A stretch of DNA of 64,000 nucleotides from Mycobacteriales bacterium (GTDB lineage Bacteria; Actinomycetota; Actinomycetes; Mycobacteriales; CADCTP01). The position numbers and the translations under genes were made by a program. Location: the NCBI GenBank assembly GCA_035995165.1, contig DASYKU010000065.1, positions 1,633 through 65,632 on the forward strand. Reading direction: 5' to 3'. The notes under the pieces were generated by a model that was not told the DNA's origin, searched no databases, and saw only the letters and a program-made list of their open reading frames with translations. Positions 30,797 through 35,442 of this stretch are shown here, piece after piece (the stretch's first letter is position 1; each line of letters starts with the position of its first letter).

Positions 30797-32092
30797 GTGA
30801 CGGTGTCGACCGTCCAAGATGTGCTGTCCGCCGTGAACCGGTGGTTCGCCGAGACCCTCGGCAACGGCGGGTGGAAGGAAATGATGCCGCTCGGCATCGC
30901 CGGGATCGTGGTCTGGTCCCTCTGGATCTACCGGGCCGTGATGTCCCGGTTCGCCAAGCCGGTCGTGAACGACTTCCGCACCACCACCTCGGTGGTCGTG
31001 CCCTCGTTCCGCGAGGACCCGGACATCCTGCTGCGCTGCCTGCGCAGCTGGCTGGTGCAGGAGCCGTCCGAGGTCCTCATCGTGCTCGACGTCGAGGACA
31101 CCGAGTGCGCGGCCCGGCTGGCGACCGTACGCAGCCCGCTGCTGAAGGTGATCCGCTACCGGCACTCCGGCAAGCGCTCGGCCCTGGGCGTCGGCATCCG
31201 GGCCGCCCGCGGCGAGATCATCGTCTTCGCCGACTCAGACACGGCCTGGAAGCCCGGCCTGCTCGACGCCGTGCAGATGCCGTTCGTCGACCCGCAGGTC
31301 GGCGCCGTCGGCACCCAGCAGAACGTCTACCAGCGCCGCACCAGCGTCTGGCGCCGGCTCGCGGACTGGCTGGTCAACCTGCGCTACAGCGACTACGTGC
31401 CGGCGATGGGCCGCAAGGGCGGGGTGATCTGCGTGTCCGGCCGGACCGCGGCGTACCGCCGGGCGGCGATCCTGCCGGTGGTGCAGAACCTGGAGAACGA
31501 GTTCTTCCTCGGCCGGCGCTGCGTCGCCGGCGACGACGGCCGGATGACCTGGCTGGTGCTCGCCTCCGGTTACAAGACGGTCCACCAGTCGAGCGCCCAG
31601 GCGCTGTCGATGTTCCCGGACTCGTTCCGGGCGTTCGTGAAGCAGCGGGTGCGCTGGAGCCGCAACTCCTACCGCTGCTACCTGACCGCGCTCTGGAAGG
31701 GCTGGCTCTGGCGGGCGCCGCGGATCAGCCAGCTGACCGTGCTGCAGATCCTGCTCACCCCGGTGACGATGGCGCTGACGCTGGCCTACCTGCTGTTCAG
31801 CCGGCTGCAGTTCACGCCGACCGGGATCGGCCTGGCCGTCGGCTGGATGCTGCTCGGCCGGGGCATCCGGGGCTACTCCCACCTGCGCAAGCACCCTGGA
31901 GAGATCATCCTGCTGCCGCTGACCGCGCTGATCGTGATCATGATCGCGCTGCCGATCAAGCTGTACGCGTTCGTCACCATGAACAAGCAGGGCTGGCTCA
32001 CCCGCTCCTCCGACTCCGTCGGCGGCGAGGGCCAGACCGCGGGCACCCTCAACCAGCAGGGCCGCTTCGGCGCGCAACCGGAGGTGGCCTGA
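30797..32092 (+). CDS. Processive family-2 glycosyltransferase, class I hyaluronan-synthase (HasA)-like membrane synthase
   Basis: GTG at 30797 follows the RBS GGTGGGGGGAA, in frame with track ORF 30737..32092. Blocks parallel S. pyogenes HasA as I remember it: SVVVPSFREDPDILLRCLRSWL, SGKRSALGVG, FADSDT, VCSGRTAAYRR, AGDDGRMT (31526-31540), QRVRWSRN (QxxRW at 31643-31657) and the C-terminal LPIKLYAFVTMNKQGWLTR. TM helices flank the catalytic domain. Confidence 0.85.
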   Translation: MTVSTVQDVLSAVNRWFAETLGNGGWKEMMPLGIAGIVVWSLWIYRAVMSRFAKPVVNDFRTTTSVVVPSFREDPDILLRCLRSWLVQEPSEVLIVLDVEDTECAARLATVRSPLLKVIRYRHSGKRSALGVGIRAARGEIIVFADSDTAWKPGLLDAVQMPFVDPQVGAVGTQQNVYQRRTSVWRRLADWLVNLRYSDYVPAMGRKGGVICVSGRTAAYRRAAILPVVQNLENEFFLGRRCVAGDDGRMTWLVLASGYKTVHQSSAQALSMFPDSFRAFVKQRVRWSRNSYRCYLTALWKGWLWRAPRISQLTVLQILLTPVTMALTLAYLLFSRLQFTPTGIGLAVGWMLLGRGIRGYSHLRKHPGEIILLPLTALIVIMIALPIKLYAFVTMNKQGWLTRSSDSVGGEGQTAGTLNQQGRFGAQPEVA

Positions 32093-35000: not shown

Positions 35001-35442
35001 GGACCGGACCGAGTGGCTGCCGCGGACGGGTGGCGCGCTGCCGGCGCCGTCCTCGGACGCGCCGAACCTGGTGATCGGGCGGACCGGCGAGCCCGGCCCG
35101 GCGCACCCGTCCAACGGTCTCGGTATCCCGGCGGCGAGCCCGTCGAACGGCGCCGGCCGGTCCGGGCACCCGTCAAGTGGATCCGGCCTGTCCGGGCATT
35201 CGTCAGATGGATCCGGCCTGTCCGGGCACCCGTCAGATGGATCCGGCCTGTCCGGTCATCCGTCGAACGGCGCCGGCCTGCCGGTGCACCCGTCGAACGG
35301 GCACGGTCTGCCGCCGTACGAGGAGGACGCGACCACCACGCTGCGGCGGCCGGAGCCGGCGTACCACGAGGACGCGACGACCGTGCTCCCCCGCCCGCGC
35401 CGGTCGGCCGAGGACGGGCCGTGGCAGGAGGAGCGGCCGTGA
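32092..35442 (+). CDS. Two-TM membrane protein with an extracytoplasmic right-handed parallel beta-helix (PbH1/CASH) domain and a roughly 467-aa disordered cytoplasmic tail
   Basis: The ATG at 32092 shares one nucleotide with the GT2 stop (cTGATGaag). TM1 is VLALAVAGGTLAAAVVGVALAG. The beta-helix repeats read NAYGLFISSADGIEVSDSEV / NGISLTG / NKRYGIEVDGGDNVGLQNNEV / GISVRDAV / LGIYLRDSSATIRGN. TM2 is PMTLLWLGVVLLVLFSAV (about 33985-34040). After that the sequence is Pro/Arg/Asp/Gly-rich repeats to the stop. It forms the 3' part of track ORF 30787..35442. Confidence 0.8.
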   Translation: MKHRSHSAPPARETAPGIAAAGTPAAGTPAAGTPAAGAAAAGTAAAGTAAETPVRRFRVHRRRSKVLALAVAGGTLAAAVVGVALAGPGGAGAAPAAGADAESANQAALVAAEDRRLIEIRSVAAVAPLRGGTEYSKPYRLTTGSGYTLVLTSRSAPYTVKDLLTLAPQTFVRQSDGSYLLLENLYLNAGAKLTLSNPGGLTIRMASASTGYVSIVSFGGALAFVGTEQQPVTVTSWDPRTKTPDTTVKDGRAYIRSVGGQFRSEYLQASNLGFWSGRTGGVSLTGTDRPDTGSTEGPESHQTKTERHAGADSRAEGNAGPAQPDQTPAAGDVYAQPSGNLSTPDTRFGTADQSFVSAKISHTTLSGNAYGLFISSADGIEVSDSEVDHSLIDGVILHRFASNGILERITSSDNAGDGFVLARATQEIRISGAVAKNNGNNGISLTGRALAEGPSPSGETVGEYGNNSVANSTFENNKRYGIEVDGGDNVGLQNNEVRGGDMGIVVRRGAQQVSVVGNQVSGQVRQGISVRDAVVNATVTGNTVESSPLGIYLRDSSATIRGNTIDRVTSHGVTAVGDVTGAQVAFNTVSGTGPTPVDTARSHGKIKVEKNQTDAWHDTRSFWIRLRHAAKPMTLLWLGVVLLVLFSAVRARKLGARGTIRHPYEKQRLLDTTDKGQLLRAAPARQREPALVGAGASAPGWDSTGIDQDTQMLSVGARQAASAPGRRSADRVVADRSGADASAPGRRSGDRADADSSVPARRSVDRAVASGPDSSVPGRRSVDRAVADRPPVTGRADARPGLDGDRVTGDLAGRPGGAARAGADRAPAMDARSVDPRPVTNALPAVAPRPAPLPPVDVRPPGGVEARPTWSRPEPAPEWKPRYERTGADPAAGPVDRSVGRPADRLSDLLAERPGARRSAEPQPDLGPGRPGARRATDSQPDLFGAGRTSDPSPERLSDLLAERPVTRREDRTEWLPRTGGALPAPSSDAPNLVIGRTGEPGPAHPSNGLGIPAASPSNGAGRSGHPSSGSGLSGHSSDGSGLSGHPSDGSGLSGHPSNGAGLPVHPSNGHGLPPYEEDATTTLRRPEPAYHEDATTVLPRPRRSAEDGPWQEERP
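32143..32247 (+). repeat. Seven tandem 15-bp repeats (consensus actccggcggccggg) encoding (A/T)(P/A)AAG pentapeptides
   Basis: I counted the units by hand: 32143, 32158, 32173, 32188, 32203, 32218 and 32233. They are in frame within the cytoplasmic N-terminus of the beta-helix protein. Confidence 0.9.
35101..35310 (+). repeat. Seven tandem 30-bp repeats encoding decapeptides resembling SGHPSDGSGL
   Basis: The units begin every 30 nt from 35101. The three central copies (35161-35250) are nearly identical: tccgggcayycgtcaratggatccggcctg. They are in frame in the C-terminal tail of the beta-helix protein. Confidence 0.9.

Follow-up and report, generated by a model that had tools for sequence, protein, structure and literature searches.

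A candidate AlgG-like subunit with a long disordered tail in a conserved, probable exopolysaccharide cassette of actinobacteria

Why should a beta-helix protein predicted to face the cell exterior carry several hundred residues of repeat-rich, disordered sequence on the other side of the membrane? The question is raised by one gene (32092-35442, + strand) in a 64-kb stretch of DNA from a metagenome-assembled genome (MAG) of a Mycobacteriales bacterium, contig DASYKU010000065.1. This stretch is hereafter called the window, and all coordinates are window positions. The gene lies in a region of 72-78% GC. Its product of 1116 aa comprises a signal or anchor sequence, an AlgG-like beta-helix ectodomain, a C-terminal transmembrane (TM) segment, and a disordered tail of 465 aa. 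An earlier note, written from the letters of this DNA, had described a beta-helix held between two TM helices and a large tail that might couple it to the synthase encoded upstream. We read the protein instead as the second subunit of an operon, with a type I AlgG-like ectodomain and a tail serving as a regulatory docking or phosphorylation platform, and we consider this reading as a whole somewhat more probable than its opposite.

A conserved operon and its likely product

The target open reading frame (ORF) is the second of four genes on the + strand. Its ATG at 32092 overlaps the TGA of a family 2 glycosyltransferase (GT2) gene in the tetranucleotide ATGA, with GGAGG located 7 nt 5' of the ATG, and its own TGA overlaps the GTG start of a lipoprotein gene at 35439 (GTGA). 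The GC content at the third codon position (GC3) ranges from 0.76 to 0.96 in the target frame. It is the highest of the three positions through most of the tail, where it mostly reaches at least 0.9; in the repeat-rich stretch 34402-34701, GC content at the first position (GC1) exceeds it. The overlapping start and stop codons and the GC3 profile uphold the view that the ORF is real and coding throughout.

A second possible start, GTG at 32251, is preceded by GGAG 6 nt upstream, and a 15-bp tandem repeat falls between the two candidates. The NCBI-sourced record P0001 uses this GTG and begins at residue 54. We favor ATG 32092 because of the ATGA overlap, because of its stronger Shine-Dalgarno sequence, and because the orthologue encoded in a close metagenomic relative (L001) starts, with MKHSAP..., at the matching GT2-coupled position. 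This orthologue lacks the N-terminal repeat.

The first gene (30737-32092, +) encodes a GT2 synthase of 451 aa resembling hyaluronan synthase (HAS) and NodC (Pfam Glyco_tranf_2_3, 3e-30). Its best NCBIfam match is NodC, at 141 bits, far below the cutoff of that model, and its best PDB sequence matches are the hyaluronan synthases 8smm (8.7e-19) and 7sp7. The third gene (35439-36569, +) encodes a lipoprotein of 376 aa with the lipobox LAVAG↓C. It is a beta-helix polyuronate lyase of the polysaccharide lyase family 31 (PL31) type, matching PsAly (PDB 6kfn) at 7.6e-49 over approximately 250 residues. Taking the catalytic and cation-binding residues of PsAly as a reference set (PMC6796002), we found all equivalents kept in the lipoprotein: K128, H154, R156, E181, Y184, E216, D219, K221, D250, and K252. 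PL31 was founded on endo-beta-1,4-glucuronan lyases, including an enzyme of Streptomyces hygroscopicus (PMC6442616). The last gene (36702-38030, +) encodes a UDP-glucose 6-dehydrogenase according to Pfam, NCBIfam, and the PDB. In the PDB it matches UDP-glucose dehydrogenases at 4e-99 and GDP-mannose dehydrogenase at 1e-53.

We checked the gene order at 80 loci from as many actinobacterial species. The GT2 gene lies directly upstream of the beta-helix gene at every one of them, and all four genes occur in the same order at approximately 70, the gaps being mostly at contig ends. Carriers of the cassette include Streptomyces (among the 80 loci, that of Streptomyces scabiei ATCC 49173), Micromonosporaceae, Actinomadura, Streptacidiphilus, and others. 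The order is also kept in L001, and approximately 360 matching stretches were found in a collection of one genome per species. The cassette is flanked by unrelated housekeeping genes.

Because this conserved set combines a HAS-like GT2, a PL31 lyase, and a UDP-glucose dehydrogenase, its product is likely a glucuronic-acid-containing extracellular polymer, to judge from these homologies glucuronan- or hyaluronan-like. We rejected an alginate (mannuronate) pathway: the dehydrogenase is of the UDP-glucose type, the GT2 is not Alg8-like, and the context of Alg8 and Alg44 with a GDP-mannose dehydrogenase is missing. A literature search retrieved no paper describing this cassette or a Streptomyces HAS-like/AlgG-like operon, and the four-gene operon is apparently uncharacterized.

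Ectodomain and membrane anchor

Residues 101-618 (32392-33945, +) form a capping helix and a right-handed parallel beta-helix, as identified by AlphaFold2 (AF2), Foldseek, and Pfam. The AF2 model, computed for residues 1-700 with a 97-sequence alignment, has a predicted local distance difference test score (pLDDT) mostly above 90 over residues 100-630. In a Foldseek search of the PDB, ranks 1-9 are occupied by AlgG, AlgE4, and AlgE6 (E 3.7e-10 to 1.7e-5), the top match being AlgG 4nk6 (E 3.7e-10; TM-score 0.59 normalized to the target). Searched as a family profile against the PDB, the homologues give meaningful matches, besides NosD, to mannuronan C5-epimerases only (AlgE4, AlgG, and AlgE6). 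The beta-helix that the earlier note had recognized is thus confirmed with confidence, and its best structural matches are AlgG and AlgE. Pfam reports Beta_helix and NosD matches in the target. We rejected an identity with NosD, as its TIGR04247 score, 22 bits, falls short of the cutoff of 300 and neither nosZ, nosFY nor any other nos gene is present in the window.

The motif YG(F/I)DPH(D/E) is common to all alginate epimerases (PMC8824271). We found DPH(D/E) neither in the target nor in any of 120 homologues. The lack of a canonical DPHD motif, already remarked upon from the sequence, therefore extends to the family, and an epimerase identity by motif is rejected. Profile alignments to AlgG and AlgE4 place the equivalent turn at NAYGLFISSA (33193-33222, +), in which G371, F373, and S375 are invariant; the family consensus reads GN-A-[FY]-G-L-F-[IV]-S-[SG]-A. 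In the coil adjoining this turn, His398-Arg399 (33283-33288, +) is invariant in 97 of 97 sequences. In weak profile alignments (E 0.058 and 0.0012), R399 aligns with the arginine of the AlgG "SR" and H398 with D178 of AlgE4. We take this AlgG arginine to be R345, the carboxylate-neutralizing residue, in the numbering of the D317A entry 4nk8; work on the AlgG mechanism by Wolfram and colleagues in 2014 is said to have assigned R345 this role. Further conserved arginines recur at coil-periodic positions (R423, R507, R531, and R554). In our reading, the ectodomain presents a putative groove for an anionic polymer, in which the catalytic centre has been rewired. The beta-helix also contains an insert of approximately 60 residues (residues ~290-350, window ~32960-33140) that is charged, modeled at low confidence, and disordered. 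The motifs on either side of it are invariant, LGFWSGRTGG...TGTDRP before and GDVYAQPSG after.

Hydropathy analysis reveals exactly two hydrophobic segments, residues ~65-87 and 632-651. Their basic flanks are as quoted in the earlier note: RRFRVHRRRSK precedes the first segment and RARKLGARGTIRH follows the second. The N-terminal basic n-region, residues 1-64 (32092-32283, +), holds the 15-bp repeat and the alternative GTG. It is followed by an h-region, residues 65-87, and by the candidate signal-peptidase sites ALA↓G, AGA↓A, and APA↓A (32284-32379, +), recognized by hydropathy and by comparison with homologues; AF2 gives a helix at residues 65-80 at low confidence. The N-termini of homologues are classical Sec signal peptides, with a short h-region, a proline, and AxA, and end for instance in LALATPAHA↓AE, LPAPALA↓EE, or LLPPAPAQA↓RP. 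On the other side of the ectodomain, an amphipathic helix (residues 619-629) precedes the TM anchor (residues 632-651; together 33946-34044, +). AF2 models the two as helices 619-629 and 632-657, and P632, M633, and W637 are invariant.

As the N-terminal segment of the family is an AxA-ended signal peptide and AxA sites follow the h-region in the target as well, the mature protein is probably a single-pass type I protein whose first segment is a cleavable Sec signal peptide and not a stable TM helix. The AAGTP-type peptide repeat encoded by the 15-bp units would therefore belong to the discarded n-region, or to the 5' leader if GTG 32251 is used. One half of the two-TM hairpin proposed earlier is retained by this topology. 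The hydropathy profile, the flanking charges, the signal peptides, and the export of the partner lipoprotein support an extracytoplasmic beta-helix and a cytoplasmic C-terminal tail. The other half, a retained first TM helix with the N-terminus inside, is made doubtful by the signal peptides of the homologues. Twin-arginine export was set aside, as the RR-containing n-regions fit S/T-R-R-x-F-L-K inconsistently across homologues. Peptide repeats were also observed in the n-regions of the homologues P0031 (HQAHPRR, three times) and P0076 (TAR repeats).

Repeats and conserved motifs of the cytoplasmic tail

The tail, residues 652-1116 (34045-35439, +), is rich in Ala, Pro, Arg, and Gly and is predicted to be disordered. 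Disorder-promoting residues make up 69% of it, and AF2, run with a 7-sequence alignment, yields a pLDDT of approximately 45 and no fold apart from one short helix on RLSDLLAE. The repeat-rich tail announced at roughly 467 aa is present and predicted to be disordered, at a corrected length of 465 aa. Its size is not a property of the family. Among 485 homologues found, the best 120, mostly 615-660 aa long, were used, and tails were compared in 117. Counted from the second TM segment (TM2) onward, these tails have a median length of 40 aa and measure 27-77 aa in 110 of the 117. Long tails (169-461 aa) are confined to the closest clade (P0001-P0007, L082, and P0124), whose members come from Mycobacteriales-type MAGs and from metagenomes; the tail of the window is the longest of all. 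A metagenome scan for more tail-bearing relatives added one locus, L082, a near-duplicate of P0003. Orthologues thus mostly lack the long tail, but not universally, since about nine close relatives keep one.

The excess length of the tail consists of repeat arrays. Pattern checks and Tandem Repeats Finder (TRF) recovered the four repeat families of the earlier note, one in the n-region and three in the tail. The 15-bp AAGTP-type unit is present in 7.4 copies (32132-32242, +; TRF score 152). The unit SxPGRRSxDRxVAD occurs four times (34247-34452, +) and, within the family, only in the target sequence. RLSDLLAE(RP), the sole predicted helix of the tail, occurs twice (34804-34827 and 34957-34980, +). 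A 30-bp unit (35139-35313, +; TRF scores 184-210) encodes (G/V)HPSxGxGL(S/P) decapeptides of the GHPSDGSGLS type. The figure of seven such repeats holds when degenerate decapeptides are included (approximately seven); TRF counts 5.2-5.9 copies. Arrays in the target score 146-210, whereas 200 simulations of the region under a first-order Markov model gave a maximum of 82 and a mean of maxima of 42, and the target gene carries three of the six arrays scoring at least 100 in the whole window. Repeat-rich disordered tails are common in high-GC actinobacteria. Elsewhere in the window, 30- and 60-bp units form tandem arrays at 9230-9511, in the 5' part of an M50/CBS protease gene (7376-9928, − strand), and a 39-bp unit is repeated at 11564-11660, at the 3' end of the ORF 10682-11674.

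The arrays differ between close relatives, as the earlier note had anticipated for repeats of this kind. The L001 orthologue (P0002), whose ectodomain is 91% identical, has no 15-bp unit, no PGRRSxDR, a single RLxDLLA, and approximately one decapeptide; with none or about one of each unit in such a close orthologue, copy number does vary. Compared with L001, the ratio of nonsynonymous to synonymous substitution rates (dN/dS) is 0.22 for the ectodomain and 0.47 for the alignable codons of the tail, an estimate biased by the alignment. These substitution patterns indicate that the tail is under relaxed constraint and is not neutral. In the nucleotide alignment of the two tails, the gaps are not individually multiples of three. 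Nevertheless, in every long-tail relative the frame stays open to the same C-terminal peptide right before the coupled lyase start, which excludes a frameshift or a mis-annotation. The arrays themselves are most likely recent and weakly constrained.

Between the arrays, conserved islands follow one another in constant order: HPYEKQ, EPxLVGA, WDxTGVDQxTxxL, (E/D)xT(E/Q)(W/F)(L/I)P, NLVIGR, and one or two YEEDATTVLPRPR. The juxtamembrane HPYEKQ (34075-34092, +) reads HPY(A/E)(D/K)(K/Q) in the family, P663 and Y664 being invariant. According to the alignment of relatives, IDQDTQML (34207-34230, +) is part of the WDxTGVDQxTxxL island; EDRTEWLP (34999-35022, +), of the form acidic-T-x-x-L-P, is partly conserved, and the C-terminal motif is conserved and present in two copies, YEEDATTTLRRP and YHEDATTVLPRPRR (35320-35388, +). 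Most islands fit a pattern consisting of an acidic residue, Thr, two variable residues, Leu, and Arg or Pro. We found acidic-T-x-x-L-[RPK] in 29 of the 117 tails, against 1.6 ± 1.2 in shuffled tails, and 28 of these 29 are at least 66 aa long. The motif is kept in all seven long-tail relatives, and the tails of a distant Streptomyces group read WFSKDEETTSLRAL or DEETAALR, some DEETTSLRAL. The target tail has three Thr sites with the full pattern, plus DQDTQML, with Ser at +4.

FHA domains select the residue at +3 after a phosphothreonine. In the logo of PknA-dependent sites from Mycobacterium tuberculosis, positions −1 and −3 to −6 are acidic, +3 is Leu or Val, and +4 is Lys or Arg (PMC7164672), and the phospho-switch of GarA consists of the motif ETTS within a disordered extension (PMC5448819). 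From this resemblance, we consider that the conserved islands most likely serve in regulated Thr phosphorylation or FHA docking. The evidence points to these short linear motifs, and not to the repeats, as the relevant parts of the tail.

Searched in full with HMMER against 1.84 billion representative sequences, the tail gave 10 matches in all. They include two orthologue fragments and P0125; the others inspected are low-complexity, repeat-driven proteins. P0125 (P0125/P0131; L083 962-4291) is a hypothetical protein of 1109 aa from a Pseudonocardiaceae MAG, unrelated to the target, and its gene lies directly upstream of a gene for a 1657-aa NAD-glutamate dehydrogenase. In P0125, PGRRSVDR-hydrophobic-x-x-(D/E)Q occurs 16 times and RLADLLTE, similar to RLSDLLAE of the target, once; an RLSDLLAE-type unit was also found in P0124. 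The likeness between the target and P0125 exists at the peptide level only, DNA cores in common being of just 22-27 nt. Such a recurrence suggests that the PGRRSVDR unit may be a reusable peptide module in the lineage. An N-terminal GGDEF match in P0125 is below threshold (13.5 bits against a cutoff of 23.8).

Proposed role, alternatives, and comparison with known systems

We class the target with the predicted accessory or modifying subunits of synthase-dependent exopolysaccharide systems. The operon would make and trim a glucuronic-acid-containing extracellular polymer. A Sec-type signal sequence would export the protein and would probably then be cleaved, leaving the AlgG-like beta-helix on the outer face of the membrane, tethered by the amphipathic helix and the single C-terminal TM helix. 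We infer that the ectodomain may bind the nascent polyuronate beside the synthase and then epimerize, cleave, or guide the chain. In a narrow lineage, in-frame tandem duplications in very GC-rich DNA would have extended the tail to 465 aa, and the conserved Thr motifs (WDxTGVDQxTxxL, EDRTEWLP, and YEEDATTVLPRPR) would serve as acceptor sites for Ser/Thr kinases.

Several observations weigh against this proposal. With the canonical catalytic residues of the epimerases missing, the ectodomain may have no catalytic activity and may, for instance, have a guiding role; the alignments that set H398 and R399 on the catalytic coil of AlgG and AlgE4 are weak (E 0.058 and 0.0012). Cleavage of the signal peptide was judged by eye against the homologues. 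In the family, 88 of the 117 tails are short and devoid of the Thr motif, and in P0007 the TT of the last motif is gone, EPTLVLRRP being kept. The motif enrichment does not constitute independent evidence, as the sequences come from essentially two clades. Neither a kinase, a phosphatase, nor an FHA gene is encoded in the window. The model of the tail is based on a shallow alignment, and, the source being a MAG, the copy numbers of the repeats may be mis-assembled.

Two other explanations concern the existence of the tail. That it is a functionless by-product, expanded by slippage-prone GC-rich DNA and kept in frame mainly through its coupling to the lyase gene, is a real possibility, albeit not the probable one. 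It would fit the specificity of the arrays for the target, the tails of 169-461 aa in close relatives, a tail dN/dS about twice that of the ectodomain, the complete predicted disorder, and the mostly repeat-driven character of the matches to the tail; the GTGA overlap with the lyase gene and the similar arrays in two other genes of the window also agree with it. What it leaves unexplained is the conservation in order of HPYEKQ, WDxTGVDQxTxxL, NLVIGR, and YEEDATTVLPRPR despite very different tail lengths, the acidic-TT-x-LR motif in the 66-81-aa tails of distant Streptomyces members, the dN/dS below 1, and the recurrence of the PGRRSVDR unit as a peptide, not as DNA, in the unrelated P0125. An artefact, either a frameshift, a MAG mis-assembly, or a miscalled ORF, with the real protein ending soon after TM2, is barely credible to us. 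The metagenomic source, the end of most family members approximately 40 aa past TM2, and the excess of GC1 over GC3 at 34402-34701 could be invoked in its favor. However, independent assemblies (P0002-P0007, L082, and P0124) are all open through tails of different length, all these tails finish in the same motif before the lyase start, and GC3 is at least 0.9 over most of the tail.

The remaining two accept the tail and differ on what it, or the N-terminus, does. According to the model of the earlier note, both termini of a two-TM hairpin are cytoplasmic, and the tail, perhaps with the N-terminal repeats, acts as a scaffold between the ectodomain and the GT2. We consider this unlikely. The h-region is long (approximately 22 residues) and preceded by a strongly basic stretch, an n-region of 64 aa from ATG 32092 is unusual for a signal peptide, the gene is translationally coupled to that of the GT2, and the invariance of the juxtamembrane HPY makes some cytoplasmic contact plausible. 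Against these features stand the cleavable Pro-x-AxA-ended signal peptides of the homologues and the AxA sites of the target itself, and the N-terminal repeats are absent from the orthologue with the 91%-identical ectodomain. Moreover, as 110 of the 117 members manage with tails of at most 77 aa, coupling to the synthase does not need a large scaffold. We give still less credit to the last alternative, and find it very improbable that the PGRRSxDR array, perhaps with RLSDLLAE, forms a ligand- or partner-binding module, that is, an Arg/Asp-rich array (containing RxxD/RxxxR) for docking a second messenger or a protein. The 16 copies in P0125, together with its RLADLLTE and sub-threshold GGDEF match, and the similarity in peptide but not in DNA are what would recommend it; the GGDEF match is far under its threshold, and PGRRSxDR is absent from all other members of the beta-helix family, the closest orthologue included.

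If the polymer is glucuronan-like, the "glucuronan lyases" of family PL31 known from Streptomyces could be placed in a biosynthetic setting, and the ectodomain would offer for study a uronate-modifying beta-helix enzyme whose active site departs from the canonical one. A bolder version, which we regard as decidedly unlikely, would combine an undescribed pathway for a glucuronic-acid polymer with a new polymer-level uronate C5-epimerase or lyase based on the His-Arg pair (converting, for example, glucuronic to iduronic acid on a glucuronan- or hyaluronan-like chain). Phospho-Thr and PGRRSVDR-type arrays on the tail would then control, from the cytoplasmic side, the activity of this enzyme or of the coupled synthase, and Ser/Thr-kinase signaling would be linked directly, across the membrane, to exopolysaccharide modification. 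The long tail represents a natural experiment, and its conserved Thr motifs flag residues that would bear on any cytoplasmic control of exopolysaccharide modification; the operon and the non-canonical active site are of more interest than the tail. For annotation, the topology is to be corrected to probable type I, with the N-terminal repeat assigned to the signal-peptide n-region or to the leader.

Further genes of the window encode a Pup ligase (2014-4239, −), a B12-dependent methionine synthase (16089-20681, −), a class-I Cys-type tRNA-synthetase-like protein, possibly MshC (21951-23204, −), and a RecD2-type helicase (38234-40120, +). A tRNA gene is located at 43561-43645 (+). A hybrid polyketide synthase-nonribosomal peptide synthetase (NRPS) cluster occupies 45603-63999 on the minus strand. 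It encodes a protein of 2716 aa with the organization KS-AT-ACP-aminotransferase-C-A-T and two more NRPS proteins, with a methyltransferase and a thioesterase among their domains. An Rfam scan found no riboswitch near the operon, the only hit being the tRNA at 43561, and a promoter and terminator scan of this GC-rich DNA gave nothing useful.

Good descriptions exist of the synthase-dependent systems that make the exopolysaccharides cellulose, alginate, poly-N-acetylglucosamine, Pel, and hyaluronan, and the target shares traits with several of them. AlgG and the AlgEs (4nk6, 5lw3, and 2pyg among their structures) act on a polyuronate made by a GT2 synthase. Like the target, they have a right-handed parallel beta-helix located outside the cytoplasm. 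In the weak profile alignments an invariant Arg of the target falls at the position of the AlgG "SR" arginine, and the invariant His lies on the coil neighboring the DPHD-equivalent turn. AlgG is a soluble periplasmic protein and the AlgEs are secreted enzymes, whereas the target has a C-terminal TM anchor and a cytoplasmic tail. Alginate operons also include a lyase and an NDP-sugar (nucleoside diphosphate sugar) 6-dehydrogenase, as does the target operon, but they combine an Alg8/Alg44 synthase with a GDP-mannose dehydrogenase, where the target operon has a HAS/NodC-like GT2 and a dehydrogenase of the UDP-glucose type. NosD (PF05048) has in common with the target generic periplasmic beta-helix repeats (67 bits in Pfam, above threshold). 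It is the best PDB profile match to the family (1.3e-5), yet the target is structurally closer to AlgG.

The BcsA-BcsB cellulose synthase provides an analogy for the arrangement at the membrane, and is used here as an analogy only. BcsB resembles the target in being a large extracytoplasmic, polysaccharide-facing subunit encoded right after a processive GT2 and held by a single C-terminal TM helix that follows an amphipathic helix at the membrane interface. The two appear to share neither sequence nor fold: the target has no BcsB Pfam match, its ectodomain is a beta-helix, and BcsB is without a long tail. The motifs of the tail are comparable to those of actinobacterial Ser/Thr protein kinase substrates (GarA ETTS and the PknA/PknB logo), with acidic residues upstream, Leu at +3, Arg or Pro at +4, and an unstructured context, and some family tails contain EETTSL, echoing ETTS of GarA. 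They differ in lying on the cytoplasmic tail of a predicted exopolysaccharide-modifying protein, with no kinase or FHA gene nearby. The streptococcal has operon (hasA and hasB) likewise unites a class-I HAS-like GT2 and a UDP-glucose 6-dehydrogenase. In the target cassette, two beta-helix proteins, the AlgG-like subunit and the PL31 lyase, are inserted between them, and the GT2 is only distantly HAS-like. Finally, the neighboring lipoprotein is comparable to the PL31 lyases, namely PsAly (6kfn), whose catalytic and cation-binding residues it has, and the endo-beta-1,4-glucuronan lyases of Streptomyces and Saccharophagus. Those lyases are free degradative enzymes, whereas that of the cassette is, as predicted from its lipobox and gene order, a lipoprotein within a biosynthetic operon.

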